Shown piece after piece: positions 8,794 through 58,892 of a DNA stretch of 64,000 nt. The DNA is from Candidatus Nanoarchaeia archaeon (GTDB taxonomy: Archaea; Nanobdellota; Nanobdellia; SCGC-AAA011-G17; GW2011-AR17), in NCBI GenBank assembly GCA_041659245.1, contig JBAZYQ010000001.1, forward strand, positions 4,912-68,911. Reading direction: 5' to 3'. The position numbers and the translations under genes are program-made. Each line of letters begins with the position of its first letter. The stretch's first letter is position 1. Below the pieces are notes generated by a model. That model did no database searches, was not told where the DNA came from, and worked only from the letters and a program-made list of their open reading frames with translations.

Positions 8794-8824
8794 TCTTAAA
8801 TATAGTAATTGGCTTAATTAGGCT

Positions 8825-12876: not shown

Positions 12877-12995
12877 TAGGAACTGAAAGTGTGTTTCATA
12901 TTTAAATAGTTTCGGGATAATAGTGGCAAACATTTAGTAATATATAATTTAAAATCAAATAGCCTTAGAGGATCAAAACATAATAACTCTTTTAT

Positions 12996-16863: not shown

Positions 16864-16930
16864 AACTTAAAATTTATTTTGAGGGTATATAAATATAATG
16901 AATTTCTAAATTTAATTTATATAAAATTCC

Positions 16931-22435: not shown

Positions 22436-22487
22436 TGATTTAGGACAATATAGATATATTTTTAAATGCTTAGTCTTATTTAATTCT

Positions 22488-38738: not shown

Positions 38739-40154
38739 TCACTTTAATATAAACTTAATAAAGCCCATTCCGCTGTTCAATACTTTCTTTCTAATCTTCG
38801 GATGCTTTAGTTTCCCCAGATATTTCACTATAATCCTTGGTCTTATATAAAATGCCATCCATGCCCTTTTATAATATTTCTCAAGCTCTTCCTTTGTAAG
38901 CCCGTGCGGCACGAAATTATCTGCATTAAACATATTTGTTTTTTTCCAATCCTTATCAAATGTTCCATATTTATCTGCCAAATTATATGCGGCTGCTCCG
39001 GGGAGAGGCGTGAAACAGGTAATATGGAAATCAGTAAGCGGGATTTTTCTTATAAATCTCAGCGTTTCTTCAATTGTTTCCTTTGTTTCACCGAAATTAC
39101 CCAGCATAAAGAGCCCCTTGACATCCATTCCTGCCTTCCTTGCCATTTTTATTGCTTCTTCAATTTGTTCTTTTTTTACTCCTTTGTTAAGTATATCAAG
39201 AATCTTTTGTGAGCCGCTTTCACACCCAAAGTTTATCTGCCAGCATCCTGCTTTATTCATTAGCTTTAGCAGTTCCGCATCAATAGTGTCCACGCGCCCC
39301 AGGCATGACCATGTTATATCAATCTTTTCGTTGATTATCCTTTCGCATATCTCTTTTAACCTTTTTTTGAACAGTAAAAAATTATCATCTTCAATGAAAA
39401 GCTCTTTGATACCATAATCCTGCTGCAATTTTTTAATCATTCTGATTACATAATCTGCGCTATAACATCGACATAAGTTTCCAAAAACACTCCTGTCGCA
39501 AAATATGCACTGCCCTGTGCATCCTCTTGAAGTGATAAGCAATGTTGCGGGATACCTGTGCATTGTATCTGCAGCGGGCTGGTAGTATTTAACAAGATTA
39601 GGCAGCATATCCCATGCGGGAAATGGTAGCCTATCCAAATCCATAATCGGCTTTCTTTTGCCTGTGAATATAATCTTGTCTTTTTCACGAATTATGAGCC
39701 CCTGGATTTTGTCGATACTTTTTCCTTCATCAAGAGTATCAAGCAGTTCCAGGATTGTATCTTCAGCTTCCCCTACCACGCCTATTTCAAAGACAGGGAA
39801 TATATTCATTGTTTGTTCAGGCACTGCAGTTATATGCGGTCCGCCAAGAATTATCCTTATTTTAGAATTAGCTTTATGCACTCCTTCTGCAACTTCTGCT
39901 GCAGTATAAACAGACATTGTTGTGGAAGTGATTCCCAGATAATCCGGTTTTTCCGCTATAATTGCATCTATTGTTTCTTTAATTGTCATTTTTAGGGCAA
40001 GGGCATCAATTATTTTTGTGTTATACCCCTTATCTTTTGTAACTGCCGCAAGAATAGCGAGTCCCAAAGGTGGTAGTTCGCTTCCTGCATCTCCCAACTC
40101 GTTATATAATTCGCTTAAGTTTTGAGGCGGATTAAGAAAAACTATTTTGCTCAT
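38739..40154 (-). CDS. Cobalamin-binding (class B) radical SAM enzyme, subfamily 2
   Basis: B12-binding-like N-terminus (PPLGLAILAAV…YLGITSTT…ILGGPH); SRGCTGQCIFCDRS CxxxCxxC. Start overlaps the stop of 40151..40888 by 4 bp. Confidence 0.85.
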   Translation of the reverse strand: MSKIVFLNPPQNLSELYNELGDAGSELPPLGLAILAAVTKDKGYNTKIIDALALKMTIKETIDAIIAEKPDYLGITSTTMSVYTAAEVAEGVHKANSKIRIILGGPHITAVPEQTMNIFPVFEIGVVGEAEDTILELLDTLDEGKSIDKIQGLIIREKDKIIFTGKRKPIMDLDRLPFPAWDMLPNLVKYYQPAADTMHRYPATLLITSRGCTGQCIFCDRSVFGNLCRCYSADYVIRMIKKLQQDYGIKELFIEDDNFLLFKKRLKEICERIINEKIDITWSCLGRVDTIDAELLKLMNKAGCWQINFGCESGSQKILDILNKGVKKEQIEEAIKMARKAGMDVKGLFMLGNFGETKETIEETLRFIRKIPLTDFHITCFTPLPGAAAYNLADKYGTFDKDWKKTNMFNADNFVPHGLTKEELEKYYKRAWMAFYIRPRIIVKYLGKLKHPKIRKKVLNSGMGFIKFILK

Positions 40155-40888
40155 TCTTTTACCCCTCTTATTCTTCGCCAGGTAAATTTCATTAAAGTTT
40201 TCATTGCCTTTATTATTTCCTGTCTTGATATTTTTGAAACGCCGACTCTTCTGTCTTCGAAGATTATCGGTATCTCACCAATCTTAAAATTATTTACTTG
40301 ACATTTATACATCATTTCCAGAAGAAATGAATATCCATTTGAGTAAATATTATTGAGATTGATTGTGCTTAATACTTCTTTTTTGTAGCATCTGAATCCT
40401 GCTGTGCAATCATTGGCTTTAAGCCCAAGCAAAGTATGAGCTAGAAGATTTGTGCTGCGGCTTATTATCTTTCGTGATATCCCCCAATTTTTGGTGCCTC
40501 CGCCAGGCACATATCTTGAACCCACGCAGAGGTCACATGTTTCCATCTTTTTGAGCATACTTGGCAGATAGCTTGGCTTATGGGAAAAGTCAGCGTCCAT
40601 GGTAATGGCATAATCATACTCTTTTTCCAGAGCAAACCTGAATCCGGCGATATAAGCTGTGCCAAGCCCCATTTTACCAGGCCTTTCTATTATAAACAGA
40701 TTTTGTTTAAATTTTTCATACATGATTTTTTTTACAATTGCTGCCGTTCCATCTGGAGAATTATCATCAACAACTACTATATGTAGTCCTAAATTATTTT
40801 TTGAAGAAACATCATATATTTCTGTTATTAGCGTGCTTATATTTTCTTTTTCATTATATGTTGGAAGGATAATTATGGCTTTTTTCAT
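40151..40888 (-). CDS. GT2 polyprenol-phosphate sugar synthase (Dpm1/ArnC/GtrB-like)
   Basis: KAIIILPTYNEKENI…VVVDDNSPDGT…DADFSH. Confidence 0.85.
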   Translation of the reverse strand: MKKAIIILPTYNEKENISTLITEIYDVSSKNNLGLHIVVVDDNSPDGTAAIVKKIMYEKFKQNLFIIERPGKMGLGTAYIAGFRFALEKEYDYAITMDADFSHKPSYLPSMLKKMETCDLCVGSRYVPGGGTKNWGISRKIISRSTNLLAHTLLGLKANDCTAGFRCYKKEVLSTINLNNIYSNGYSFLLEMMYKCQVNNFKIGEIPIIFEDRRVGVSKISRQEIIKAMKTLMKFTWRRIRGVKE

Positions 40889-41056
40889 ATTAGAGTTACC
40901 TTTTACATATTTGCATATAATCTTTTAATTTTATCGGTTTCTGATGTGTTGTTAAAATAGTGCAGATTTAAAAACTTTGCCTTATTTTGTAATAACTAGC
41001 TAAAACCGGCAAATTTCGCATGCAATGTGGTTTTTAGCTAAAATGATTTGTTTTTC

Positions 41057-41072
41057 AATAAATTTATAAATC
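41057..41072 (+). promoter_or_regulatory. Candidate archaeal BRE/TATA box (AATAAATTTATAAATC) ~25-30 bp upstream of the gmd ATG, suggesting a leaderless transcript
   Basis: TTTATAAA with an A-rich upstream BRE-like element at the expected -26/-27 spacing from ATG 41095. Sequence-only; the AT-rich background gives a high false-positive risk. Confidence 0.25.
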
Positions 41073-41094
41073 CCTTAGCATAAATCTAGATAAA

Positions 41095-42087
41095 ATGCCC
41101 AAAACAGCACTCATCACAGGAATAACAGGACAGGACGGCTCTTATCTTGCTGAATTCTTACTGGGCAAAGGATACACTGTTTACGGATTAATAAGGCGCT
41201 CTTCAACAGAAACCACAGGCAGGATACAGCATTTAGTTGATTCAGGAAAAATTCAATTGATAGGCGGAGATATAATAGACCATCTTTCATTAATACAGGC
41301 TGTGCAAAAATCGGGCGCAGACGAGGTTTACAATCTTGCTGCAATGTCTTATGTGAAAGCTTCTTGGGATCATCCTGTTGCGACTGCTGATTACACAGGT
41401 ATAAGCGTCACCAAGATGCTTGAAGCAATAAGAACCATCAATCCAAAGATAAAATTCTACCAGGCATCAAGCAGCGAAATGTTCGGCAAGGTGCAGGCAG
41501 TGCCGCAAAATGAAAAAACTCCTTTCTATCCAAGAAGCCCTTACGGAATTGCAAAGCTTTTCGGGCACTGGACAACTGTGAATTACAGGGAAAGTTACAA
41601 TATATTTGCGTGCAGCGGAATACTATTTAATCATGAATCCCCAAGAAGGGGAATGGAATTTGTAACAAGAAAGATATCCCATAATGTCGCTAAAATAAAA
41701 TTAGGGCTTTCAAACGGTTTTAGCCTTGGCAATATGGATGCAAAAAGAGACTGGGGTTTTGCAGGGGATTATGTTAAGGCAATGTGGCTTATGCTTCAGC
41801 AGGACAAGCCGGAGGATTATGTTATTGCAACAGGCGAAACGCATTCTGTCCGCGAATTCGTGGATGCTGCTTTTTCGCACGTAGGCATAACAGACTGGGA
41901 AAAGTATGTCAAGGTTGATGCAAGGTATATGAGGCCTGCAGAAGTTGAGCTGTTGGTAGGAGATGCCTCAAAAGCAAGGGATGTGCTTGGCTGGAAGCCT
42001 GATGTTTCATTCAAGGAACTTGTTGCCATGATGGTTGATTCTGACTTAAGGTTGTTGAAAAATGAGAGTTCTAATAACAGGAATTGA
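41095..42087 (+). CDS. gmd: GDP-mannose 4,6-dehydratase
   Basis: [20 protein letters not shown]-terminus, YxxxK (YGIAK), characteristic Gmd blocks ([22 protein letters not shown]); 330 aa. Confidence 0.9.
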
Positions 42088-42976
42088 CGGATTTGTAGCG
42101 CCATTTCTTGCTCGGCTTGAAAAAAACACCAATGAAGTTTTTGGCGCTTATCTTAAGGAGCCCATAAGGGAAAAAGGAATAAATTATATTCTTATGGATT
42201 TGCTTGATGAAAAAGCAGTTGACAAAGTTATTGCAGATGTAAAGCCCGATGTCATATATCATCTTGCAGGCTTCAGCTCTGTTGCAGACAGCTGGAAAAC
42301 ACCTAAAATGGCAATGAAAATCAATGCTGGCGGGACATACAATCTTCTTAATGCGGTACAAAAAGCAGGAATAAACCCCCGAATTGTAGCTGTTTCTTCT
42401 GCAGATGTTTATGGTAATCCATTGCATTTGCCAATTAGTGAGTCACACCCATTAAATCCGCAAAGCCCCTACGGCGAATCCAGGATTGAGCAGGAAAATA
42501 TTATATCTGGATTCAAAAAGCTGGACGTGATTATTTCAAGAAGCTTCAGCCATACTGGCCCGGGGCAAAGCACCAAGTTTGTATGCTCTGATTTTGCATA
42601 TAAGATTGCTGCAATTGAGAAAGGTATTGCAGACAATATTCTAATGCACGGTGACATTAAAATTAAAAGGGATTTTTCAGATGTGAGGGATATTGTAAGG
42701 GCATATGTGCTTCTTGCAAGGAAAGGAAAGCCGCATCAGGCATACAATGTCTGTTCAGGCAAGGCTTATTCAATAGGGCAGATACTGGACATATTTTTAA
42801 GAATGAGCAAATCAAAGATAATAAAAAAGTTTGATTCTTCTAAAACAAGAAAAGCTGACATTCCCGTACTGCAGGGAGATAATTCAAAGCTTGTCAATGA
42901 TACCGGCTGGAAGCCGGAGATTAAGTTAGAGGAAACACTTAAGGAATTGCTGGAATACTGGAGAAATAATATTTAG
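42062..42976 (+). CDS. GDP-4-dehydro-6-deoxy-D-mannose reductase (Rmd)-like short SDR
   Basis: [24 protein letters not shown] YxxxK. 304 aa; overlaps the gmd 3' end by 26 bp; paralog of 50197..51141. Confidence 0.6.
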
Positions 42977-43032
42977 CAAACTGAGCTTATGCATTCACAA
43001 GGCTTTTTAACCCTCTTTTCCAGATTTATTCT

Positions 43033-44181
43033 ATGAAAATAGGCTTTTTGCTCTCATCCTTCTATCCTGCAACAGGCGGAAGGGAGACAATTACATTTAA
43101 TCAGGCGAGGGAGCTGGCAAGAAGGGGGCACGAGGTGCATGTATTCACTTCTTTGGCAAATGGGCTGAAAAAAGAAGAGGTTGTTGAAAAAATACACATA
43201 CACAGAAGCAAGACATGGTTTAAGTACAAATATTATCTTGAATTTAATCCGGGCTGGGTATGGAATGTGATGAAATGCAAGTTGGATATTCTTCATATTC
43301 AAAGCTTTGGCTTTATCATGGCTGACAAGATTGTTTTGCTGAAAAAGATTTTTACAAAAACAAAACTGGTGAATACGCCGCATGGGCCTTTCATGGCTCT
43401 GGACAAATACCCCCTTTGGCAGGCTGTTTTGAAAAAAGTATATACTGCGCTGGAATATCCTGTTAATCGGCTTTATGACGCTGTAATACAGGTTAATCCG
43501 GAGCAGTGGACTTGGATGGTTAAAGCAGGCGCAAGAAAAGACAGGATTCATCTTATTCCCAATAGCATTCCTCATGAATTATTTGGAAAATACGACTCCA
43601 GGAAATTCATTGAAAAATACGATTTGAAAGGCAAGATAGTAATAAGCTATGTCGGAAGAATCCAGAAATACAAGGGGCTTGACCAGGTGATTGCTGTTTT
43701 GCCTGATGTTCTTAAGAAACATAAGAATGCTGTTTTTCTTGCAATGGGCAAGGATGCTGATGACATGGACAGGCTTAAGAAGATGGCTGCTGAGCTTAAT
43801 GTTGAAAAGCAGGTTATATTGACAGGCTCTGTTACTGAAGAAGAGAAGATTCAGGGCTTGGATGTTTCGCAGATATTCGTGTTTCCTTCTGAATGGGAGG
43901 CATTTGGAATAGTCCTTGTTGAGGCAATGGCTCGCGGAAATGCTTTAATTAGCACTAAGACAGAAGGGGGCAGGTATCTTGTTGAAGAAGGCGTAAACGG
44001 CTATCTCTATGACTACAAGAATACCGAGCAGCTAAAGAAATGCCTTTTGAAATTGCTGGATGATGAAAAATCCAGAAAGCTTATAATAAGCAATAATCTG
44101 AAAAAATCGCACAGGTTCAAGATTGAAACCATAACTGACGAGCTTGAAACGCTGTATAAATCACTGACAAAGGCGAAATAA
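43033..44181 (+). CDS. GT4-family glycosyltransferase
   Basis: FPSEWEAFGIVLVEAMARGNALISTKTEGG E-x7-E region; 382 aa. Confidence 0.85.
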   Translation: MKIGFLLSSFYPATGGRETITFNQARELARRGHEVHVFTSLANGLKKEEVVEKIHIHRSKTWFKYKYYLEFNPGWVWNVMKCKLDILHIQSFGFIMADKIVLLKKIFTKTKLVNTPHGPFMALDKYPLWQAVLKKVYTALEYPVNRLYDAVIQVNPEQWTWMVKAGARKDRIHLIPNSIPHELFGKYDSRKFIEKYDLKGKIVISYVGRIQKYKGLDQVIAVLPDVLKKHKNAVFLAMGKDADDMDRLKKMAAELNVEKQVILTGSVTEEEKIQGLDVSQIFVFPSEWEAFGIVLVEAMARGNALISTKTEGGRYLVEEGVNGYLYDYKNTEQLKKCLLKLLDDEKSRKLIISNNLKKSHRFKIETITDELETLYKSLTKAK

Positions 44182-45204
44182 ATGAAAGTAATATGCAGGG
44201 TGCCGGTAAGAATCAATCTCGCAAATGGCGGGGACACTGATTACTATATTAAGGAAGCCGGCTGGGGATGCGTTGTCAATGCAACTCTTTCCTCGCATTT
44301 CTATGAAGTTGAGCTTAACGAAGATAATAATTTCAAGATGGACATTGTTGATTATTTTGACTATGCGCATAACATGAACAGGACATACAGGCTTGACTCT
44401 GATTTTTCAGAGCTGGACTTGCTGAAAGCATCATTAAAGGAAACAGGATTCAATGGAAGAAATTCTTTTGTATCAAGGACAAATGTTCCAATGCAATCCG
44501 GATTGGGAGGCTCTTCCTCAGTATGCGTTGCAATACTTTCTGCAATTAAGCATTACAGGAATGAGCAGATAAACCCGCATGAGATTGCATCAATGGCTTA
44601 CTCTATTGAGAGAAACAGATTAAATGTGCCCGGCGGATACCAGGACCAGTATGCTGCGGCGTTTGGAGCAGGCTTTAATTACATGGAATTCAGGAATGAC
44701 GGGGTTTCTGTTGAGAATCTTAATCTTTCTGATGAAGTTATTGAAAAGCTGGAGAAAAATCTGATTTTGTATTATATTTCAAAAAGAAGCGTTTCAGGAA
44801 CCGAGGTTCACAAGGCGCAGGAGCAGAAAGCGGCTTTGGAATGGGAGCAGGTTAAGTCACTGCTTGTTGAAAAAAGAGATAATGCCGTAAAGACAAAGGC
44901 GGCTTTACTTTCAGGGGATTTATCACAATTCGCCTTGCTTTTAAAAATTGACGGAGAGCTGAAGAATAAATTGTCTCCAAAGGCTTCAAATGAATTTATT
45001 GATTCTTTGATGGAAACTGCTTATTTGAATGGCGCAATCGGCGGGAAGATTTCAGGGGCTGGAAGCGGCGGGTGCATGTTCTTTTACGTGCCTGAGGAAA
45101 AGCAATCGCAATTTAAGCAGGCGATGGAGAATTCTGGCGCGATTGAGATGAATTACAGGTTTCAGAGAAGCTATGAGCCGGGAATTCTCTTGAAGAGATT
45201 GTGA
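44182..45204 (+). CDS. GHMP-family sugar kinase (D-glycero-D-manno-heptose 7-phosphate kinase HddA-like)
   Basis: GHMP motif PMQSGLGGSSSVCVAIL; C-terminal GAGSGGCMFFYV. Starts immediately after the upstream stop (TAAATG). Confidence 0.7.
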   Translation: MKVICRVPVRINLANGGDTDYYIKEAGWGCVVNATLSSHFYEVELNEDNNFKMDIVDYFDYAHNMNRTYRLDSDFSELDLLKASLKETGFNGRNSFVSRTNVPMQSGLGGSSSVCVAILSAIKHYRNEQINPHEIASMAYSIERNRLNVPGGYQDQYAAAFGAGFNYMEFRNDGVSVENLNLSDEVIEKLEKNLILYYISKRSVSGTEVHKAQEQKAALEWEQVKSLLVEKRDNAVKTKAALLSGDLSQFALLLKIDGELKNKLSPKASNEFIDSLMETAYLNGAIGGKISGAGSGGCMFFYVPEEKQSQFKQAMENSGAIEMNYRFQRSYEPGILLKRL

Positions 45205-45264
45205 TTCGGAAGGTTTATATATTACTTCTTCGGGGTAACTCTAGAGTATTCAGGGGGTAAATCA

Positions 45265-46017
45265 ATGGTAAATCTTGAACAAATAACAGCAATCGCAACA
45301 ACTACTTTTTACAAGCCGGGCTCTGAGAATGATGCAATGAGGGCTGAGATTGCAAAAAAGACTGTAAGAAATGCGGCTGATTTGGGATATCCTATTGTTA
45401 TTGTTGACGGCGGCTCTTCTGATGAATTGCTGAAAGAGTTTCAAAGCTACGGGCAAAATGTTTATGTTCATGTCGAGCCAAAAATGGGCATGGGAGAAAG
45501 CAGAAGGCACGCCCTGAATCTTGCAATGAAGCTTGGCAGGCATGTTATTGCATGGGTTGAGCCTGAAAAAGAAAATTATATTCATAGTATTGCAAAAACA
45601 GTTGAGCCTATTTTTGACGGCTCTGCTGATTTGGTTGTACCCAGAAGGGCATCATTGGCATCTTATCCTCTTGGGCAGCAGCAGGCGGAAAGCATGGGCA
45701 ATTTATTCTGGAACAAATTAACAGGGCATGATTTGGACATGTGGTTCGGGCCAAGGACTTTCAGAAGGGATATCAGCGCTTATTTTACAACATATAACGG
45801 AGAGTATGGCGACAAATGGGATTCAATTTTCATACCGGTAATGGATGCCATAATCGGCGGAGAGAATGTTAAGAGTGTTACAGTTGATTACACCCATCCT
45901 GCAGAGCAGACTGCTTTTGAAGAGCAGGACTTGAGCTTGTATTTGAAGAGAGTCAAGCAGCTGGAAAACCTGCTTCCTGCATTGGAAACACACTGGAAAA
46001 AAAGAAAGGGAATCTGA
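45265..46017 (+). CDS. Hypothetical protein, possible GT-A-fold (nucleotide-diphospho-sugar transferase-like)
   Basis: IVIVDGGSSDELL resembles the GT2 xDD motif region. Otherwise unrecognised. Confidence 0.35.
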   Translation: MVNLEQITAIATTTFYKPGSENDAMRAEIAKKTVRNAADLGYPIVIVDGGSSDELLKEFQSYGQNVYVHVEPKMGMGESRRHALNLAMKLGRHVIAWVEPEKENYIHSIAKTVEPIFDGSADLVVPRRASLASYPLGQQQAESMGNLFWNKLTGHDLDMWFGPRTFRRDISAYFTTYNGEYGDKWDSIFIPVMDAIIGGENVKSVTVDYTHPAEQTAFEEQDLSLYLKRVKQLENLLPALETHWKKRKGI

Positions 46018-46023
46018 AATAAG

Positions 46024-46734
46024 ATGATACAACTCGGCACTCTGGGAAACTTCTTCCACGCAATCTGGCTTGGCAGGATAGAAGGTTCTCTTAAGCTGGA
46101 GAATACAAATTTTATCGGGCAGGACAATGTCATTGCAGTTGGAAGAGATTTAAAAAATGATTTGGAATCTGTTGTTGCTCTTCAGCCTGATATTGTTGTT
46201 GCAGGAAATCACGGGTGCAGGGTTAATTGCTCCGAGTGCTGCGACAAGCCTGCTTACAGGAACAGGGTTACGAGAAGATACTGCGAATACCTTACTGAAG
46301 TTGGAAATTATTGCATTACAAAGCTTGCAGGCAAAAACTGCACAGACGATGTTTGCGAAAAATGGTTCTGCTTAGAGTTTTGCGAAGATCCTGTTGACAG
46401 GTTCTCTGGAAATTCACTTGAAGTGCCTTTGATAGGAAATACTGCGAATATTTACAGCCTAAGGCAGAAGGTGGAATTTTTGGCAATTGTTACAGCAGTG
46501 CAGACAGGTATTAAAACATGCAATATAGCTTCGCTTGCGTCACGCGGTAGGGAAGTAATACTTTACAAAAAGGCAAAAGAAATGCTGTTGAAAACAGCTG
46601 ATGTGAAAGCGGCTGCACTTATTGAGAATGATGAATTTGAACAGGCAAAGGCATTGATGGGAAGCAATAATTATTTTGAAGCGCTGAAGCAGTGGGAAGA
46701 AAGATATTGCAAGAGGAAGAAGTTGAAGTTATAA
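46024..46734 (+). CDS. Cysteine-rich hypothetical protein (possible metal/Fe-S binding)
   Basis: Cys clusters HGCRVNCSECCDK (CxxxCxxCC) and YCEYL…NYCITKLAGKNCTDDVCEKWFCLEFC. The 236-aa size is too short for a canonical radical SAM barrel. Confidence 0.4.
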   Translation: MIQLGTLGNFFHAIWLGRIEGSLKLENTNFIGQDNVIAVGRDLKNDLESVVALQPDIVVAGNHGCRVNCSECCDKPAYRNRVTRRYCEYLTEVGNYCITKLAGKNCTDDVCEKWFCLEFCEDPVDRFSGNSLEVPLIGNTANIYSLRQKVEFLAIVTAVQTGIKTCNIASLASRGREVILYKKAKEMLLKTADVKAAALIENDEFEQAKALMGSNNYFEALKQWEERYCKRKKLKL

Positions 46735-46748
46735 TCTTGAGATACAAA

Positions 46749-47960
46749 ATGAAAAACATAATAATCGTGAATCAGGCGCCGCACGGAATAGGTCCCATAT
46801 TGAGGGCTGCGGAATTTGCGCAGGATTTGTATCATATGCTAAAAAAAGATAATCCTGCCAATGAATATGAAATTGTCTTTACAGAACCTGAAAAGCCGTT
46901 TCTAAAGAAAGTTTTGCAAAATGAAACATTTCTAAATGACGAGGCTTTGGAGCATGTATGGCTTTCGCCTGAATTTGGAGCTCTTGTAAATTCATTTGAT
47001 TTCAGCAGTTCAGATTACAAAGACAGGCTGGAAAATATAGCTGCCAACAGAAGCAATCTTGAAGCAAAACTTTTATCATTGCTTGAAAATGGAATGGAGG
47101 CTTATAAGCTTGTAAAGCCGGAAGAAAGGATGGCTGTAAAAAGCGATAATTTGTTATGTGAAGTCAGCCATAATCCCATTCTAAGAACTGCTGTTGACGG
47201 TTCGCTTAGCATGTTTTATACAACAATAGGATTGTTTTCAGAAATATTAAAGCATGCTTCTGATGTAAACCCCAGATACAATGATGCAGAACTGCAGAAA
47301 GTAGTGCAGGCTTGCATATCAGAAGCAAAAGACGTAGAAAGCGTGCAGACTTTTCTTATGGTGGCAGAGCCATCAGCACTTACATACAAGGGGAATACAA
47401 ACAAAAATGAGCTTTGGATTCCGCCTTTCATAAGGCCTCCTGCAGGAAGCACTGAAACACTCAAACAAGGAGTTTATCTGAATATTTCAGGAATAGATTC
47501 AGTGCAGAAACAGATAGTTGATTTGGCAAAGCCATTCATGGATGCAGGCTATGCTGTTTATTATCCACCAAGCTACAAGCAAGGCATTGAAGGCGGTATA
47601 GAAAAAGCGCCTGTTGAAAAAGGCATAAGCATTTTCTCAAATCCTGCAATTATTGCAGCTGTCGGCAGAATGGGCTGGAGTTCTGTGTGGGAGCCCATGA
47701 TGAATGGAAGCCCGTTTATTACATATGAATATGATGAGAAAGAAGATCCTGAAATGCATCATAATGTAAGAACACTTGAACAGCTTGGATTGGGTGTTGT
47801 GATGAAGACAGGAGATGAACCAAAAGTTGTAATGGAAAAGGCGCTTGCATTGAGACCAAAAATACAGCAATATCTTGGAACACTTCAGCAAAAGTATGGC
47901 ACATTAAATGGAATAGAGTTTGCGGCAAAAAGGGCTTACTCAGCGCTTAAAGGCTGGTAG
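46749..47960 (+). CDS. Hypothetical protein with GT-B (MurG/GT28/GT1-like) C-terminal domain features
   Basis: C-terminal PAIIAAVGRMGWSSVWEPMMNGSPFITYEY…QLGLGVVM resembles the GT-B donor-binding region. Start placed at the internal ATG 46749. Confidence 0.4.
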   Translation: MKNIIIVNQAPHGIGPILRAAEFAQDLYHMLKKDNPANEYEIVFTEPEKPFLKKVLQNETFLNDEALEHVWLSPEFGALVNSFDFSSSDYKDRLENIAANRSNLEAKLLSLLENGMEAYKLVKPEERMAVKSDNLLCEVSHNPILRTAVDGSLSMFYTTIGLFSEILKHASDVNPRYNDAELQKVVQACISEAKDVESVQTFLMVAEPSALTYKGNTNKNELWIPPFIRPPAGSTETLKQGVYLNISGIDSVQKQIVDLAKPFMDAGYAVYYPPSYKQGIEGGIEKAPVEKGISIFSNPAIIAAVGRMGWSSVWEPMMNGSPFITYEYDEKEDPEMHHNVRTLEQLGLGVVMKTGDEPKVVMEKALALRPKIQQYLGTLQQKYGTLNGIEFAAKRAYSALKGW

Positions 47961-48024
47961 TTTGATTTTAATTCTAAATACAGATTCCATAATGCTTATA
48001 AGTTAAGGAAAGATTTCAAGATAT

Positions 48025-48915
48025 ATGATTTCAATTGTCATAACTGCATTCAAGGAGCCTTTGGTATATCGCGCTATTGAAGCAATTCTTTTCCAGAAAA
48101 TCAAGGAGGATTTTGAGCTTGTTGTTGCAGCGCCTGACAAGGAAACAGAAGATCTTGTAAAGGAATACCACAAAAAATACAAGCAGATAAGATTCTTCAA
48201 GGATCCGGGAAAGGGAAAGAGCTTTGCATTAAATCTCTTATTCAAGGAATTGAAAGGAAAAATCTGGATTTTCACTGATGGAGATGTATTTTTGGACAAT
48301 GGCGCAATAAACGCAATGCTTGACATGTTCAAGGATGAAAAAATAGGCTGTGTTTGCGGCAGGGTAATGTGCGAGAATCCAAGATACACGATGTTTGGCT
48401 ATTGGGGCAAATTGCTTGCTGATGTTGGAGCGCACAGGATAAGAAAGGAATTGTTCAAGCAAAAGCAGTTTCTTGAATGCTCAGGCTATTTGTTTGGCTT
48501 CAGAAACAATGGAATCATTACAAGCATTCCTGTTGATGTTGCCGAGGATTCAATAATACCTTATTATTTCTGGAAAAAAGGTTATACAATCGGCTATGCA
48601 GAGAATGCAAGAGTATTTGTGAAGAATCCGACAAACCTGCATGACTGGATGAAGCAGAGAAAGAGGACTGCTGATGCGCATACAAAGCTTACAAAATATG
48701 TTCCTGATTTTCCAAAAGTAAAATCATTCAAGAACGAGGCTTCAAAAGGAATAAGATGGATTTGGGGCTATCCAAAAAGCGTCAAGGAATTCTTTTGGAC
48801 AATACTTCTTGTGTTTGCAAGGCTCTATATGTGGCTTTCATTGTTCTATGACCTGAAATTCAAGAGAAAAGGGTATGTTGACGGCTGGGAAAGAAGCGAA
48901 ACAACTAAGATTTAG
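48025..48915 (+). CDS. GT2-family glycosyltransferase
   Basis: ISIVITAFKEP…VVAAPDKET…FTDGDVF (DxD), C-terminal hydrophobic helix. Stop overlaps the convergent gene end. Confidence 0.75.
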   Translation: MISIVITAFKEPLVYRAIEAILFQKIKEDFELVVAAPDKETEDLVKEYHKKYKQIRFFKDPGKGKSFALNLLFKELKGKIWIFTDGDVFLDNGAINAMLDMFKDEKIGCVCGRVMCENPRYTMFGYWGKLLADVGAHRIRKELFKQKQFLECSGYLFGFRNNGIITSIPVDVAEDSIIPYYFWKKGYTIGYAENARVFVKNPTNLHDWMKQRKRTADAHTKLTKYVPDFPKVKSFKNEASKGIRWIWGYPKSVKEFFWTILLVFARLYMWLSLFYDLKFKRKGYVDGWERSETTKI

Positions 48916-49622
48916 ATTTTTCCTGTTTTCATCATTTCTTCTATTTGCTTCATTCTATCAAATGAGCCCATGTCTTCAAGAAATTCTTCTGTATAATAAG
49001 CATAAACCTTTTTGCCTTGTTTTAGCAATTCAGGAAGAAGCTGCCTTTCAAGATTATAGCTTCCTTCTGGGATTATTGAAAGAGATTTTGGGCTTAAAAC
49101 ATACATTGAAGCATTTGTCTTGTCAATCTTAGGAGTTTCTGCTGAATGCGGCTTTAGCCAGAAATGCTTTACTTTACCTTTCTTGTCATATTCAATCAAA
49201 TCGCTTTCTTCAGGATGGCTTCCTTTTTGCACAACTACTGTTGCATCAGCTTTCATTTTCTTATGAAATTGCATGAGCTTTTTTGCGTCAATTTTGCACA
49301 CTATATCGCCTGAAAGCACAATAAAGTCCTCTTTTAGCTTTTCTTTTATTATTCTTAAAGGGCCTCCTGTTCCAAGCGGACTTTTCTCTACTGAGTATTC
49401 AATGTGAACTCCTAATTTGCTTCCATCTCCAAAGTATTTTTCAATTACATTGGATAAATAGCCTGAGCAGATTATGATATCTGTAATTCCCTGTGTTTTT
49501 GCCCATTCTATTGTATGCTCAAGAATAGGTTTTCCATTAATCAGAAGCATTGGCTTTGGAGTGTCATAAGTAAGCGGCTGAAGCCTGACTCCTTTTCCAC
49601 CAGCCATTAGAACTAGTTTCAT
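48912..49622 (-). CDS. Sugar-1-phosphate nucleotidyltransferase (D-glycero-D-manno-heptose 1-phosphate guanylyltransferase HddC-like)
   Basis: LVLMAGGKGVRLQPLTYDTPKPML N-terminal signature. ~236 aa, short like HddC. Start overlaps the gmhA stop. Confidence 0.7.
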   Translation of the reverse strand: MKLVLMAGGKGVRLQPLTYDTPKPMLLINGKPILEHTIEWAKTQGITDIIICSGYLSNVIEKYFGDGSKLGVHIEYSVEKSPLGTGGPLRIIKEKLKEDFIVLSGDIVCKIDAKKLMQFHKKMKADATVVVQKGSHPEESDLIEYDKKGKVKHFWLKPHSAETPKIDKTNASMYVLSPKSLSIIPEGSYNLERQLLPELLKQGKKVYAYYTEEFLEDMGSFDRMKQIEEMMKTGKI

Positions 49623-50218
49623 TTTTTGCCGTAAAGCTCGTTTTCAATGACTTCGCACATGACATGCCCCACTGTGATGTGCATTTCCTGTATTCTTGCG
49701 CATCTTTCAGAAGGAACCTTAAGAACATAATCCAATCCCATGCTGTTCATCTTTCCGCCATTTGAGCCTGTCCATGCAATTGCCTTTGCGCCTTTTTCCT
49801 TTGCAGCCTTGAGCGCATTGATTACATTGTCAGAATTGCCTGATGTTGAAATTCCTATAACAGCATCATTTTCATTTACCAAGTCCATTACCTGCCTTGA
49901 AAACAAGTGTTCATAGCCCATGTCATTGCCTATTGCAGTGAGGATTGAAGTGTTTACAGTAAGCGCTATTGCCGGAATGCTTGGTCTTTTGTTTTCCCTG
50001 TCAAGCAAACAGACTAATTCTGCCGCAATATGCTGGGCGTCTGCTGCAGAGCCGCCATTGCCCAGAATAATCATCTTGCCCTTGTTTTTGTAGCAATTGA
50101 CTATAATTTTGCACATCTGCTCTATTTCATTTGACATTGAAACAAGCTTTTGCTTTGATTCAAGCGATTCATTCAAGCTTTTTGTGATTGTATTTATCAT
50201 TTGATTTTTTCCCTCCAA
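49619..50218 (-). CDS. gmhA: Phosphoheptose isomerase (sedoheptulose-7-phosphate isomerase, SIS domain)
   Basis: IILGNGGSAADAQHIAAEL and SGNSDNV SIS motifs; 199 aa. Confidence 0.85.
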   Translation of the reverse strand: MEGKNQMINTITKSLNESLESKQKLVSMSNEIEQMCKIIVNCYKNKGKMIILGNGGSAADAQHIAAELVCLLDRENKRPSIPAIALTVNTSILTAIGNDMGYEHLFSRQVMDLVNENDAVIGISTSGNSDNVINALKAAKEKGAKAIAWTGSNGGKMNSMGLDYVLKVPSERCARIQEMHITVGHVMCEVIENELYGKK

Positions 50219-51141
50219 AACTCAACCATATCCTTAAGAGTCTTGTCAATGGGTATAGACTGCTTCCACCCTGTGCTGTTTTTAAGCTTTGTGGAGTCTC
50301 CGAATATTATTGTTTCGTCAGTGGTTCTCAATAACTTGGGATCAACTTCTATTTTGCATTTTATGCCTGTGATTTTTATTATTTCATCAAGTATGTCTTT
50401 AATCAGATATGCCTTTTCTCCGCAAAGGTTATAGACTTCTCCTGCTTGTCCTTTTTCAGCCAGAAGATAGAATGCATTGATTATGTCTCTCACATCTGTG
50501 ATAGCTCTTTTTGCATTAAGGTTTCCAACTTTAAAGACAGGATTCTGCTTCCCCTTCTCTATCATCACTGCCTGTTTTGTGAAATCAGAGCAAACATCAT
50601 TGACTTTTCCTGGGCCTGTTGTGTTGAATATTCTTACTCTTATGCCTTTCATTCCAAAATTCTTAAAATACTGGTACGTGAGAAAATCCTGCCCAACCTT
50701 GCTGACTCCATAGGGATGCAGTGGAAGCAGTGAATGCTCTTCTTTTATCGGAATCTCTTCAGGCTTTACAAATCCGTACTCTGCTGATGAGCATGCAACA
50801 ATCACAACCGGATTCATTTTTAATTCTTTCAATGACTCAAACAAGTTGATTGTGCCTTCAATGTTTGACTGTACTGTGAAGTTTGGCTTTTCCCATGAAA
50901 CAGTTGGATAGCTTTGCGCAGCAAGATGGTAGACTTGGTCAGGCTTGAATTCCTTCAATAGCTTCTTGAATTTTTCCTTGTCTCTTACGTCAAGCTCAAC
51001 TGCCTTTCCTAATTTTTTTAATTCCTTTATATCAGAAATAGGCTCATAATAAGTTGACATGACTTCCGCGCCTTTCTCATGCAAAAATCTTGCAAGATGG
51101 GGGCCCATGAATCCGCCTGCGCCTGTTATGAATGCTCTCAT
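50197..51141 (-). CDS. Rmd-like short SDR (NDP-sugar reductase/epimerase), paralog of 42062..42976
   Basis: MRAFITGAGGFMGPHLARF, YGVSK. Conserved blocks with 42062..42976 (TGPGxxxxxVCSDF, EKG, NLNAKRxxTDVRDI, YNLCGEKAY). Start overlaps the gmhB stop. Confidence 0.8.
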   Translation of the reverse strand: MRAFITGAGGFMGPHLARFLHEKGAEVMSTYYEPISDIKELKKLGKAVELDVRDKEKFKKLLKEFKPDQVYHLAAQSYPTVSWEKPNFTVQSNIEGTINLFESLKELKMNPVVIVACSSAEYGFVKPEEIPIKEEHSLLPLHPYGVSKVGQDFLTYQYFKNFGMKGIRVRIFNTTGPGKVNDVCSDFTKQAVMIEKGKQNPVFKVGNLNAKRAITDVRDIINAFYLLAEKGQAGEVYNLCGEKAYLIKDILDEIIKITGIKCKIEVDPKLLRTTDETIIFGDSTKLKNSTGWKQSIPIDKTLKDMVEFWREKIK

Positions 51142-51701
51142 TTGTTCTCACCTAATATTATCTTTGCCGCATCATATAAATCTTCTGCAGTATAGTTAGG
51201 GACAGCCTCTGCTGTATTGTCCTTTCCGCCGTAGCCTGTCAGAACAAGAATTGTTTTCACGCCTGCTGACAAACCTGCTTTAATATCTGCTTTTTTGTCT
51301 CCAACCATAAAGCTTTGTTTTAAATCAATATTATGCTCTTTTGCAGCCTGAATAAGCATTCCCGGCTTTGGCTTTCTGCAATCGCATTCTGTCTTGTATT
51401 TTCCAATGCCTTTTTCAGCATGGTGAAAGCACATGTATGTCGCATCAACCCTGGCTCCTTTTTCTTTAAGCAAGGAAATAACTTTCAAATGCACTTTCAT
51501 TGCCTGCTCTTCAGAGCACATTCCCCTGCCAACAGCAGCCTGGTTTGTTATTATGATAACTTTGTATTTCTTGTTAAGAAGCGCAATTGCCTCGGCAGCT
51601 TTTGGAATAAGAGATACATCTTCCTCTTTGGTAATGTGGTCTACATCCTTTATTATAACTCCGTCCCTGTCCAAAAATACTGCTGGTTTTTTTAGTTCCA
51701 T
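51138..51701 (-). CDS. gmhB: D,D-heptose 1,7-bisphosphate phosphatase (HAD family IIIA)
   Basis: AVFLDRDGVII HAD motif I, CDCRKPKPGML Zn-site/motif, GDKKADI motif. Confidence 0.85.
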   Translation of the reverse strand: MELKKPAVFLDRDGVIIKDVDHITKEEDVSLIPKAAEAIALLNKKYKVIIITNQAAVGRGMCSEEQAMKVHLKVISLLKEKGARVDATYMCFHHAEKGIGKYKTECDCRKPKPGMLIQAAKEHNIDLKQSFMVGDKKADIKAGLSAGVKTILVLTGYGGKDNTAEAVPNYTAEDLYDAAKIILGENK

Positions 51702-51800
51702 TACTATAATTGAAGGCTTTTGAAATGCTTAAAAAGTTTGTGTATAGCGCGTCGAAACTGCAGATAAACAGTTTACATTTCTTATACATAAGGCTTTTAA

Positions 51801-52721
51801 ATGGTTCCTTGCAAAATTCTGCATATGAACGACAAAGTTTATCTTATGGCAAACAATGCAGCAATTGACGCTACAATACTTACAAAAGGTGACATAGTGC
51901 CTGCGTATGCAAAACATCATGGAATCCCTTTGGAGAGAATAGCTGCAATAGGCGATGAAATAATAGACTTGCCTATGCTTACAACTGAGGGATTGGGCTT
52001 TGTTGGCGCTCCTGCCAATGCTCAGGACAAGGTAAAGGAGGCAGTTGCAAAAATGCAGAATGGCTGGATTTCTTCGTGCCAAGTGCTTGACGCATTTATT
52101 GAGTTTTATGCTCTCACCAAGAAAAGAAATATTTCCCATATAATCTCAGACAAAGATGGAGTGCTTCTTGCAAAGGGTGACTTGGCAAGGGGCGCTGAAT
52201 TTTATGCTCTTATGCAATATGCAGGAGTTGGCGGGAATCCTTTTGTTACTGTATTAACAGGTTCTTCTGTAGGACAGAATGCAAAATTCATGAAAGGATA
52301 TGGCCTTGATGCAAGGCTTGAATCAAATCCTGCTATAAAGAAAAATCCTTATCTGCTTCTCGCTGAAAACGGGTTAATTCATCTTGATGTGCTGTCAGGC
52401 AATACCTTGAACTTTTGTAAAATACTTAATCCCTATCTTCTCACAAAACTGAAAAATGAATTTGAGCCTGAAGTTGCTAGGAGAATGGAAGCAGAGATAT
52501 TCCCTATATTTGGTTTTGAGTGGAGTGCTGATTCTGAAGATCAGGCTGAGAAGGTGTATCATGCTCCAAAGCAAGGCATGGTTACATTCAATGTGCCTCG
52601 CTATTTTAAAGACGGAAGCGATTACAGGAAATCAGCGCAGGCAAAAGCATACAGGGAAAACATGATAAAGCTCATGTCTGAAACTGCTGAGAAAATACAG
52701 ATGCATTATGAAATATTATAG
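51801..52721 (+). CDS. HAD-superfamily-like protein with unusual motif order (KdsC-like segment upstream of a DxDG motif-I segment)
   Basis: IAAIGDEIIDLPML (HAD motif III/IV-like) at ~aa 45-60 precedes IISDKDGVLL (motif I-like) at ~aa 113, then VTVLTGSS. Confidence 0.4.
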   Translation: MVPCKILHMNDKVYLMANNAAIDATILTKGDIVPAYAKHHGIPLERIAAIGDEIIDLPMLTTEGLGFVGAPANAQDKVKEAVAKMQNGWISSCQVLDAFIEFYALTKKRNISHIISDKDGVLLAKGDLARGAEFYALMQYAGVGGNPFVTVLTGSSVGQNAKFMKGYGLDARLESNPAIKKNPYLLLAENGLIHLDVLSGNTLNFCKILNPYLLTKLKNEFEPEVARRMEAEIFPIFGFEWSADSEDQAEKVYHAPKQGMVTFNVPRYFKDGSDYRKSAQAKAYRENMIKLMSETAEKIQMHYEIL

Positions 52722-52744
52722 AATGAATTTATTATTTCGGCTTT

Positions 52745-53671
52745 TTATTTCTTGTCTTTCCCAATCCTTATCATCAGCACGCCTACCAACGCAAGCCCAA
52801 TAGTCGCTATTGAATAAATCAAAGACGCAGCCATCACAAGCCCTGCGGGAACTCCTATCAAGCCGTACATGTAAACAGACGCTCCCTCTTTCAATCCCAA
52901 GCCTGAGATTGTTATTGGAATAAGGGCAAGTATATTTATGGTTACTGAGATAAGATATACATAGGGGAAATCAACATAAACTCCCGCCATCCCGAGCACA
53001 AGCCACATTGACAATGCAAGTATTGCCCAGCGGATTGCAGACAAAAGAATCAGGATTATGAACAATGAATAATCTTTTCTCATAAACAATTTTAGCTTTT
53101 CAGTGAATTCCTCAAATGACATTGCATATTTTTTAAGAAATTTTGAAATAACCTTTGTTCCAAAGCGAAGAAACAGGACAAATGAAAGCAATGCAATTAT
53201 TGCAATCATCATTGGAATGTAAATTTTTCCTCCAGGCAACAGAAGATAAAAGGTGATTGTGGCCATCATAACATAAAAAGCAAATGTTCCTGCCTTGTCA
53301 ACAAGATACATGATTGCAGAATCCTTCACTTCAATATTCTGCTTTTTAAGAAAATAAAGAATTGACAAGTCACCGAATTTTCCGGGAATTATCGTGCCTA
53401 TGCTCCAGCTTGAAACAAAATGCCTGAACAGCGTCATGAACCTTATTTTCACATTTATTCTTGAAAGAACAAGATAATATGATGCCGTGTTAAGCAATGC
53501 ATTAAGGAGATAGCCAATGGCAATTATTAAATAGACAAGGGGATTTGTGGATGAGATAATGCCTGCAATTTCCCTGAACCCGATTGCATATATCAGCGCT
53601 GAAATTATTGCAATTCCAAACCCGGCTTTCATGAGGGTAAAATATGGCTTTTTCATATTGCTGTAATGCAT
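52745..53671 (-). CDS. Flippase-like membrane protein (lysylphosphatidylglycerol-synthase TM region / UPF0104 family)
   Basis: ~8 TM. Resembles LPG_synthase_TM-type flippase-like domains, which are commonly fused or adjacent to GT2 in archaea. Probable start at the internal MKKPYF (~53656). Confidence 0.55.
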   Translation of the reverse strand: MHYSNMKKPYFTLMKAGFGIAIISALIYAIGFREIAGIISSTNPLVYLIIAIGYLLNALLNTASYYLVLSRINVKIRFMTLFRHFVSSWSIGTIIPGKFGDLSILYFLKKQNIEVKDSAIMYLVDKAGTFAFYVMMATITFYLLLPGGKIYIPMMIAIIALLSFVLFLRFGTKVISKFLKKYAMSFEEFTEKLKLFMRKDYSLFIILILLSAIRWAILALSMWLVLGMAGVYVDFPYVYLISVTINILALIPITISGLGLKEGASVYMYGLIGVPAGLVMAASLIYSIATIGLALVGVLMIRIGKDKK

Positions 53672-53920
53672 AGAAAGGTTTATATATAAGATGCCTACTT
53701 AATGTTCTGAAAGAAGATAGACGATAGTGAATGATATCTTCTTACTAATGTTCGAAAATTCATTTTCGAATAAATTGTTCTAGTTCCTATATGGAACGAG
53801 AGGCGTTTTGCCTCGCAAGTTCGCGCAACGCGAGCAGCGGAATGCATGCATTCCGTTCAGTGCCTACTCTGAATAGGCATACATCATAATGAGTGCTTGA
53901 TTGAACAATCCTGCATGATG

Positions 53921-53960
53921 TGGGCAAGACGGCAATAATATTGTATATTATTGCGTGCAC
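53921..53960 (+). other. 5' strand of the 16S pre-rRNA processing stem (pairs with 55547..55587)
   Basis: TGGGCAAGACGGCAATAATATTGTATATT is complementary to AATATACAATTTGCTAAAGTCTTGCCCA downstream of the 16S (10-nt perfect GTCTTGCCCA core plus an AATATACAAT block). Confidence 0.6.
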
Positions 53961-54059
53961 TAATAAGTAAAATTTTATACCTCTATTTTTTGGTAGCTAT
54001 ATTAGTTTAAGTTTAGTTTCGATTTATTTTCTACGACAGAAACGCGACATTTAATGAAT

Positions 54060-55535
<1,476 letters not shown>

Positions 55536-55604
55536 TTATTTATTTATGTACAATATTTAATATACAATTTGCTAAAGTCTTGCCCACAAAAATGCTTTGG
55601 CTTT

Positions 55605-55676
55605 GGGCTCGTAGCGCAGTGGTAGCGCACTGCCCTTGCAAGGCAGGGGTCTCGGGTTCGAATCCCGACGAGTCCA
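55605..55676 (+). tRNA. tRNA-Ala (anticodon TGC) in the 16S-23S spacer
   Basis: GGGCTCGTAGCGCAGTGGTAGCGCACTGCCCTTGCAAGGCAG…GGGTTCGAATCCCGACGAGTCCA. Cloverleaf with 7-bp acceptor stem and G3:U70. CCA not encoded. Confidence 0.9.
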
Positions 55677-55900
55677 TTATGTATTTCCATTTTGGATTTC
55701 ATACCCGGCTGCAGGAGAATAAAATTTAGCTAAAGCAGATCACATATCATATTCAAACATATCATTGTTTGATCCGAAACCGAAAGGTTTCATTTGTGCG
55801 GTTCGCGTCGCGAGAAGCGGACTAAGGGCATTATGTCCATGAAGCAATAGTTTCATGGTACAGTATCATCGCAAACCAAAAGTTTGCACAGATGTTCATG

Positions 55901-55930
55901 GTGCCGTGCATAGGCAAGACAGTCTAGATC
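55901..55930 (+). other. 5' strand of the 23S pre-rRNA processing stem (pairs with 58844..58873)
   Basis: GTGCCGTGCATAGGCAAGACAGTCTAGATC pairs with AATCTAGGCTGTCTTGCTTATCACGGCA, about 25/28 complementary. Confidence 0.6.
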
Positions 55931-55939
55931 CTACTTATG

Positions 55940-58850: not shown

Positions 58851-58892
58851 AGGCTGTCTTGCTTATCACGGCATTCCTTTTTTCAAAAATCT

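Follow-up and report, generated by a model that had tools for sequence, protein, structure and literature searches.

The window, a stretch of 64,000 nucleotides of Candidatus Nanoarchaeia archaeon DNA (contig JBAZYQ010000001.1), carries a gene cassette that we read, with reasonable confidence, as the alpha-anomer route to a nucleoside diphosphate (NDP)-heptose followed by one dedicated modifying enzyme, the whole feeding the cell-surface/N-glycan island of a DPANN archaeon. The core of the cassette is a pathway already known from other hosts; the new element is its fifth member, a conserved, often fused, and uncharacterized short-chain dehydrogenase/reductase (SDR). An earlier note on this DNA had proposed a GDP-heptose pathway with an Rmd-like reductase embedded in it; the pathway is supported by profile searches, gene context, and gene fusions alike, while the role given there to the reductase had to be revised. 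The five open reading frames (ORFs) of the heptose locus were all found where they had been placed, and they are listed here with their Pfam domains, together with a nearby gmd gene:

44182-45204, plus strand, GHMP kinase of the HddA type (GHMP_kinases_N and GHMP_kinases_C)
48912-49622, minus strand, nucleotidyltransferase (NTase) of 236 amino acids (NTP_transferase)
49619-50218, minus strand, SIS protein, GmhA (SIS_2)
50197-51141, minus strand, embedded SDR, hereafter SDRemb (GDP_Man_Dehyd/Epimerase)
51138-51701, minus strand, HAD protein, GmhB (HAD)
41095-42087, plus strand, Gmd

In the proposed route, GmhA (49619-50200) would convert sedoheptulose-7-phosphate to D-glycero-D-manno-heptose-7-phosphate, the GHMP kinase (44182-45204) would phosphorylate it at O1 to the alpha-1,7-bisphosphate, and GmhB (51138-51701) would remove the 7-phosphate. 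The NTase is predicted to hold the position of HddC, and SDRemb (50197-51141) would then act on the resulting GDP-heptose as a C4 (or C6) epimerase/oxidoreductase, giving a heptose isomer, and not as a DmhB-type partner of Gmd. Two co-conserved glycosyltransferases, of the GT4 and GT2 families, would transfer the product, presumably to a surface or N-linked glycan, while gmd and a second Rmd-like SDR (SDR2) would form a separate branch of the GDP-D-rhamnose type.

The four core proteins were compared with the NCBIfam models, whose equivalog cut-offs are 600 bits for HddA, 276 and 209.45 for GmhA, 178 and 149.6 for GmhB, and 300 for HddC (NF049965). For three of the four, the kinase, the SIS protein, and the HAD protein, the best profile turned out to be that of a heptose enzyme. 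The kinase scored highest with HddA (170 bits), the next family being mevalonate kinase (70 bits), and galactokinase reached 65 bits at most. It has both GHMP domains, N-terminal (PF00288) and C-terminal (PF08544), and its top three relatives in the PDB are all heptose kinases (3k85, 4n3o, and 4usk/WcbL; E values of 1e-41 to 2e-33), compared with about 1e-9 or worse for mevalonate kinases (7e-10) and galactokinases. The possibility that this protein would group with galactokinase or other hexose-1-phosphate enzymes, raised earlier as a way to refute the pathway, is thus contradicted by both comparisons. We assign the kinase provisionally to a divergent archaeal clade of HddA, with its functional link provided by the relatives that are fused to SIS/GmhA or to HAD/GmhB domains.

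The SIS protein (SIS_2, 81.9 bits) gave 199.8, 179.5, and 149.7 bits with the GmhA models, the first two against the cut-offs of 276 and 209.45. In the NCBIfam scan it matched GmhA/DiaA models alone and no KpsF/GutQ model, which speaks against the arabinose-5-phosphate isomerase alternative. Its translation contains GNGGSAADAQHIAAEL and RIQEMHITVGHVMCEV, which may correspond to the catalytic residues E65 and H180 (E. coli numbering). The gene probably starts at the ATG at 50200 and not at the listed TTG at 50218, because the former is needed for the overlap with the SDR stop codon described below; the 199-amino-acid version that starts at the TTG was also the sole queried protein without an identical public entry. 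The HAD protein fell just short of both GmhB cut-offs (165.3 bits against 178 and 142.1 against 149.6) and gave 107 bits with the alpha-type GmhB domain model (cut-off, 250), while it exceeded those of HAD-IIIA (TIGR01662, 118.6 against 44.6) and of the histidinol-phosphatase domain (TIGR01656, 140.1 against 84.15). It has the DxD nucleophile motif of the HAD-IIIA group (DRDG at residues 11 to 14, with D11 and D13) and the Cys/His zinc loop C91-x-H93...C106-x-C108-RKPKPGM, in which the CxC…RKPxPGM motif reported before is readily recognized. Since their scores lie below the equivalog cut-offs, the kinase, GmhA, and GmhB are classed, on profile evidence, as divergent members of their families. 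From the type of kinase we infer the alpha anomer for the route.

The gmhB, SDRemb, gmhA, and NTase genes lie in this order on the minus strand, and at each of the three junctions (gmhB/SDRemb, SDRemb/gmhA, and gmhA/NTase) the stop codon of one gene and the start codon of the next overlap as ATGA; the overlapping stops remarked upon around the embedded gene are therefore real. We then determined how far this arrangement is kept in 80 loci around relatives of the kinase, taken from GTDB species representatives, in which stop-free ORFs were searched with the window proteins; about 45 of these loci are archaeal, and all counts are lower bounds, many of the contigs being short. Among the 24 closest DPANN-type loci, orthologs were found of gmhA in 21, of the NTase gene in 20, of SDRemb (at least 50% identity) in 19, of the GT2 gene (at least 45% identity) in 18, of gmhB in 16, of the GT4 gene (at least 45% identity) in 10, and of gmd in only 3.

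Moreover, the genes of the cassette are frequently fused to each other. Stop-free gmhB-NTase fusions were present in 14 loci, hddA-gmhA fusions in 8, gmhA-hddA fusions in 3, and gmhB-NTase-SDR fusions in 3 (L010, L011, and L013), with NTase-SDR in two and gmhB-SDR and gmhA-hddA-NTase in one each. Protein searches added the combinations SIS-GHMP, HAD-GHMP, NTP_transferase-SDR, and SIS-SDR (P0199). The bacterial loci examined contained no SDR-bearing fusion; in a cassette from a bacterial metagenome-assembled genome (MAG) (L081) and a matching metagenome cassette (L084), the order is SDR, NTase, HAD-SIS, GHMP, GT4, the GT4 gene thus following the kinase, and no other sugar-nucleotide-type (extended) SDR occurs within 8 kb. 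The wide occurrence of these arrangements suggests that DPANN archaea commonly possess the alpha-type (GHMP-kinase) heptose route, as a trait of modular build.

Many cassettes of the Woesearchaeota type have a second, divergent GHMP kinase beside gmhA, 28 to 33% identical to the window kinase (L009, 800-1816; L010, 8303-9397; L011, 4206-5234; L012, 8368-9396; L013, 8338-9396; L014, 8357-9397; L021, 8358-9374; L023, 2696-3712; L028, 8388-9413). The window has no such paralog.

The NTase (PF00483, 128.8 bits) is a short single-domain NTP_transferase that is genetically tied to gmhA, gmhB, and hddA. It matches positions 3 to 222 of a 352-residue model and 1 to 221 of the 360-residue human GMPPB, and therefore does not have the C-terminal extension of the ManC/GMPPB references of 352 to 360 amino acids. 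In a neighbor-joining (NJ) tree it was placed in an archaeal clade whose members adjoin or are fused to GmhB, GmhA, HddA, or SDR genes, with the exception of a few loci in which the gene lies some kilobases away on the same contig. Its distances to the bacterial NTases from HddC contexts (1.36 to 1.43) equaled those to the eukaryotic mannose-1-phosphate guanylyltransferases (1.38 to 1.45). A clustering with hexose-1-phosphate enzymes, the other result that was to count against the pathway, was accordingly not seen: the clade is linked to heptose genes and is equidistant from GMPPB and from the bacterial HddC-context enzymes. The designation of this protein as HddC-like in the earlier note can be kept for its context, given the overlap with gmhA and the fusions, and has to be dropped for its sequence, which remained below the NF049965 cut-off and did not cluster with bacterial HddC. 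The NTase is hence predicted to occupy the HddC position in the pathway while standing outside the bacterial HddC family. We infer that GTP is the nucleotide, because the close characterized relatives of the NTase are all guanylyltransferases and because the downstream, sometimes fused SDR belongs to the RMD/GMD group of GDP-sugar enzymes.

That SDR matched PF16363, the GDP-sugar RMD/GMD group, with 208 bits. Its best PDB matches were 2pk3, the RMD of Aneurinibacillus thermoaerophilus (249 bits), 7us5, the GDP-heptose 4,6-dehydratase of C. jejuni (169 bits), and 6x3b, the RMD of P. aeruginosa (139 bits), and the heptose_epim (HldD) model was distant (66 bits). SDRemb is an extended SDR with the triad S118/Y144/K148, S118 standing in the local string C-S118-S-A120-E-Y-G. 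In the NJ tree it fell within an RMD-like superclade that was separated from Gmd with 100% bootstrap support, and formed there a clade of its own. Its Rossmann region has neither the Arg/Lys of the two RMDs nor a clear Asp at the end of beta2, and does not discriminate between NAD and NADP. The description of the embedded gene as Rmd-like thus stands as far as its clade is concerned; what is not supported is its reading as a DmhB-type partner of Gmd.

According to the latter reading, Gmd (41095) would double as a DmhA-like GDP-heptose 4,6-dehydratase and SDRemb would be the DmhB/Rmd-like C4 reductase, the two yielding GDP-6-deoxy-D-manno-heptose. It is in line with the RMD as best characterized relative of SDRemb, with the plain S/Y/K triad, which is that of reductases, and with the position of gmd, which lies 8 kb from the cassette here and also near it in L002, L003, and L005. 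The properties of Gmd itself, however, point elsewhere. Gmd is canonical, with 459 bits for TIGR01472 (above the cut-off of 415) and 424 bits to the P. aeruginosa GMD 1rpn against 119 to 7us5, so that it is not closer to the GDP-heptose dehydratase than to the hexose Gmd. It also has a partner of its own, with which it overlaps translationally and which is kept next to it in L002 and L005:

42062-42976, plus strand, SDR2, a second Rmd-like SDR and predicted GDP-4-keto-6-deoxy-D-mannose reductase, overlapping gmd by 26 nucleotides

SDR2 gave 233 bits with 2pk3, 157 with 6x3b, and 116 with 7us5, has the motif SSADVYG (SSGDVYG in the P. aeruginosa RMD), and is 37% identical to SDRemb. Together, gmd and SDR2 would make up a self-contained pair of the GDP-D-rhamnose type (or for 6-deoxy-D-talose), as predicted from these matches; no mannose-1-phosphate guanylyltransferase or phosphomannomutase to feed gmd was found in the window. 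SDRemb and the dehydratase do not, furthermore, travel together, SDRemb being present in 19 of the 24 DPANN loci and gmd in 3. In the loci L010, L013, and L021 (21 kb each) and L081 and L084 (17 kb each), no sugar-nucleotide-type SDR other than a member of the SDRemb family is present, and none of these loci has a dehydratase within 8 to 10 kb, although distant partners elsewhere in the genomes are possible. Finally, the GmhB-NTase-SDR fusion is most sensibly explained if the SDR takes the product of the NTase directly, which argues against a reductase that awaits the product of a distant dehydratase, and the fusions of SDRemb relatives to NTase, GmhB, and GmhA tie the family to the heptose genes. 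A joint action of Gmd and SDRemb after the manner of DmhA and DmhB therefore appears unlikely to us.

Still less probable is that SDRemb itself is a non-canonical GDP-heptose 4,6-dehydratase, akin to DdahA/WcbK, with the reduction in the 6-deoxyhexose branch and in the 6-deoxyheptose branch alike left to SDR2. The second-best PDB match of SDRemb is indeed the heptose dehydratase, at 169 bits against 116 for SDR2, its clade stands in the NJ tree beside that of 7us5, L018, and L034, and its place as the first gene of a cassette or fused after the NTase would suit a first-acting enzyme. The sister grouping with 7us5 was, however, without bootstrap support, most of the cassettes have no candidate reductase nearby, and the active site speaks against a dehydration. 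In extended SDR dehydratases, an acid/base Glu is found two residues after the catalytic Ser/Thr (S/T-S-E in GMD, T-D-E in RmlB, and S-S-E in 7us5). The catalytic residues of SDRemb were assigned from alignments to 7us5 and Gmd and from what is established for SDRs in general. HMMER, MAFFT, and hhalign (the last with the 7us5 group as well as with the Gmd group) all aligned A120 with the catalytic Glu of 7us5 and GMD, so that SDRemb does not have the S/T-x-E motif. The motif was found in 117 of 120 homologs (at least 54% identity), every one of which has Ala or Gly at this position, and the neighboring Glu121 is replaced by Gln in six of the 120 and by Val in one, as well as by Ile in L017. 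With Ala or Gly at position 120 throughout and Glu121 being replaceable, the role of an essential acid/base cannot fall to either residue.

A different register, in which compensating indels would make Glu121 the dehydratase Glu, was considered and rejected, the alignments by HMMER, MAFFT, and hhalign being ungapped here and Glu121 being Gln, Val, or Ile in some orthologs; such a register would also depart from the Ser-x4-Gly spacing, which extended SDRs are known to keep without variation.

Two loci do have a dehydratase-type SDR beside the heptose genes, L018 of Pacearchaeota (8250-9236) and L034 of Bathyarchaeia (12152-13123). Both proteins share the GPRR motif of 7us5, their active-site motifs are S-T-S-E-V-Y-G and S-S-A-E-V-Y-G, and no SDRemb ortholog was found in either locus. 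This pattern suggests that the enzymes of first modification are alternatives and that lineages choose between 6-deoxy and non-deoxy heptose products.

An SDR without the dehydratase acid/base would likely pass through a transient keto intermediate with no dehydration. As judged from its active site and gene context, SDRemb is thus probably a non-dehydrating oxidoreductase or epimerase that works on GDP-heptose itself. We rank the candidate reactions with C4/C6 epimerization or C4 oxidation of GDP-heptose first, the DmhB/Rmd-type reduction, which would need a dehydratase from another locus (here perhaps Gmd), second, and the non-canonical dehydration third.

Several observations weigh against the route proposed here and have to be set beside those that favor it. 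All four core enzymes score below their NCBIfam equivalog cut-offs. The best NCBIfam match of the NTase is a mycobacterial mannose-1-phosphate guanylyltransferase (183.5 bits), HddC reaching only 95.4 of the required 300 bits, and its best PDB match is human GMPPB (121 bits, compared with 77 bits for the Yersinia HddC 5xhw). In a bootstrap with capped distances, the archaeal NTases stood apart from the bacterial ones and from GMPPB with a modest value of 36/60. The window contains no second NTase, though gmd needs GDP-mannose, and for these two reasons the NTase of the cassette may serve mannose-1-phosphate, alone or besides heptose-1-phosphate. The best characterized relative of SDRemb is a reductase, the A. 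thermoaerophilus RMD (249 bits), and the three closest loci with a gmd gene (L002, L003, and L005) have it nearby, which leaves a small probability for a Gmd-dependent reductase role here. A further reading, namely, that the organism employs the NTase as a plain ManC, to supply GDP-mannose to Gmd and mannosyltransferases while the heptose genes lead to a different or non-nucleotide product or rely on another NTase elsewhere, would agree with these guanylyltransferase matches and with the need of gmd, but we hold it to be very improbable in view of the ATGA overlap that puts the NTase gene in one operon with gmhA, the fusions of its orthologs to GmhB, HddA-GmhA, and SDR, the adjacency of nearly its whole clade to heptose genes, the missing C-terminal extension, and the fact that a dual specificity would meet both needs.

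The SDRemb family comprises more than 120 clusters at 54% identity or more, with frequent fusions to NTase, GmhB, or GmhA, and its members are at present automatically labeled "GDP-mannose 4,6-dehydratase." Two loci, L009 and L023, have two tandem copies of the family. We suggest, tentatively and with more doubt than attaches to the pathway as such, that SDRemb belongs to a widespread uncharacterized family whose members are dedicated to the archaeal/DPANN GDP-heptose cassette as its fifth enzyme. Such an assignment would correct the automatic labels, and, if it is true, DPANN surface glycans would carry a heptose isomer that is new to archaea.

The host is an archaeon, as evidenced by an archaeal rRNA operon (16S-tRNA-Ala(TGC)-23S) at 54058-58853 and by the deposited proteins: 9 of 10 queried window proteins have identical entries under "MAG: Candidatus Nanoarchaeia archaeon" (MFA5887094 to MFA5887136; contig of 71.5 kb). 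The automatic annotation had in part recognized the core pathway already. Pfam scans placed the heptose ORFs within a glycan island of about 53 kb (window positions 1 to 53,700) that adjoins the rRNA operon and contains AglB/STT3, a Wzx-type flippase, at least nine candidate glycosyltransferases, several methyltransferases, a DegT aminotransferase, a UDP-glucose dehydrogenase, and six B12-binding radical SAM proteins. The G+C content of the heptose/rhamnose part (40000-54000) is 0.38 to 0.42, compared with 0.31 to 0.39 upstream (1-40000), where 0.39 is reached only at 16001-18000. Despite this somewhat raised value, the closest relatives of the kinase, SDRemb, and the NTase are DPANN archaea and not bacteria.

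The remaining genes of the locus are the following:

43033-44181, plus strand, GT4 glycosyltransferase and candidate heptosyltransferase (Pfam Glycos_transf_1 and Glyco_transf_4), with a TAA-ATG junction to hddA downstream
45265-46017, plus strand, weak GT2-like protein of 250 amino acids in the hddA operon (PF00535, 23.6 bits, barely over the cut-off)
46024-46734, plus strand, orphan Cys-rich protein of 236 amino acids in the hddA operon, with a radical-SAM-like CxxxCxxCC motif and nine conserved Cys
46692-47960, plus strand, protein of 422 amino acids in the hddA operon, possibly a GT-B glycosyltransferase (Glyco_tran_28_C, 20.3 bits, sub-threshold)
48025-48915, plus strand, GT2 glycosyltransferase (Pfam GT2 families)
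51801-52721, plus strand, atypical HAD-like protein of 306 amino acids, divergent from gmhB

Neither the weak GT2-like protein nor the 422-amino-acid protein had a useful match among PDB sequences; the latter has a 67% ortholog in L008. The orphan Cys-rich protein matched no Pfam or NCBIfam model, and Foldseek against the PDB returned nothing with an E value below 1; its AlphaFold2 model has a mean pLDDT of 62.9 and is poor in the Cys region. It is known from only 15 clusters, the taxon-labeled ones being all from Nanoarchaeota or Woesearchaeota (DPANN), and in L003 hddA is followed by a 65% ortholog. In the atypical HAD-like protein, the N terminus corresponds to C-terminal HAD motifs (GDxxxD; Hydrolase_3, KdsC/Cof-like) and a DKDGVL string, a motif of the nucleophile type, lies in the middle. 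The layout of the protein suggests a circular permutation or the remainder of a tandem, and a 54% ortholog lies beside gmhB in L002.

Elsewhere in the island of this small-genome archaeon, genes for the six B12-binding radical SAM proteins, which are paralogs, lie dispersed at 7345-8793 (plus), 11437-12933 (minus), 19440-20867 (plus), 22404-24011 (plus), 34555-36090 (plus), and 38739-40154 (minus). C-methylation of sugars or lipids is one possibility for their function. Genes for B12-binding radical SAM proteins likewise occur with glycosyltransferases and a member of the SDRemb family in L082. A 974-amino-acid protein encoded at 4414-7338 (plus) combines GtrA-like transmembrane segments with ribulose-phosphate 3-epimerase and histidine-phosphatase domains, an unusual membrane-anchored fusion. 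AglB/STT3 is present in full length (903 amino acids; 30957-33668, minus), and a separate ORF of 164 amino acids with a match to the STT3 N terminus lies at 15106-15600 (minus).

The position of the heptose cassette beside AglB and glycosyltransferases means that the host-facing surfaces of DPANN archaea may be heptosylated. It also offers a defined set of enzymes for study, including the natural GmhB-NTase-SDR fusions, and these might extend the range of known GDP-heptoses by a new isomer. A full-text search of a limited literature collection gave no report of the GHMP/alpha route or of the SDRemb family in DPANN archaea. For heptose in an archaeal N-glycan, a single case, that of Thermoplasma acidophilum, is cited in a review (PMC11407970). 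The statement that heptoses are rare in archaeal glycans therefore holds for the chemistry, but not for the genes, which are common in DPANN MAGs.

Of the systems with which the locus can be compared, the ADP-L-glycero-beta-D-manno-heptose pathway (GmhA, HldE, GmhB, and HldD) has the same five-function logic, its last step being carried out on the completed NDP-heptose by an SDR, the 6-epimerase HldD; the kinase of the ADP-heptose route is of the HldE type. The window kinase is instead of the GHMP type, the NTase belongs to PF00483 near the guanylyltransferases, and HldD is only distantly related to SDRemb. Enzymes of the beta-type NDP-heptose routes have been reported across kingdoms, including archaea (PMC11573728). 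The Gmd/Rmd pathway to GDP-D-rhamnose, found in P. aeruginosa and A. thermoaerophilus, is represented in the window by gmd and SDR2, which resemble a standard pair. SDRemb also has its best match in the RMD of the latter species, but it is only 37% identical to SDR2, forms its own clade, and is linked to the heptose genes and not to gmd.

With DmhA/DmhB of Yersinia pseudotuberculosis and DdahA/WcbK of C. jejuni, the locus shares the presence of an SDR of the GDP-sugar RMD/heptose-dehydratase group among heptose genes, the window protein giving 169 bits with 7us5. It differs from them in the Ala at position 120 of this SDR, in the hexose type of the local Gmd, and in that most of the related loci have no dedicated dehydratase nearby. 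The closest counterpart is the bacterial GDP-heptose route with HddA and HddC, which comprises the same four activities and the same GHMP-type kinase and follows a matching alpha-anomer logic; the bacterial heptose kinases nearest to the window kinase in the PDB are those of B. thetaiotaomicron, C. jejuni, and Burkholderia. In C. jejuni, all the modified heptoses of the capsule are built from a GDP-heptose precursor (PMC10680097). The window differs from this bacterial route in its DPANN host, in an NTase that is no closer to HddC than to GMPPB, in the location of hddA in a separate, convergent glycosyltransferase operon, and in the multidomain fusions that are found among its relatives.

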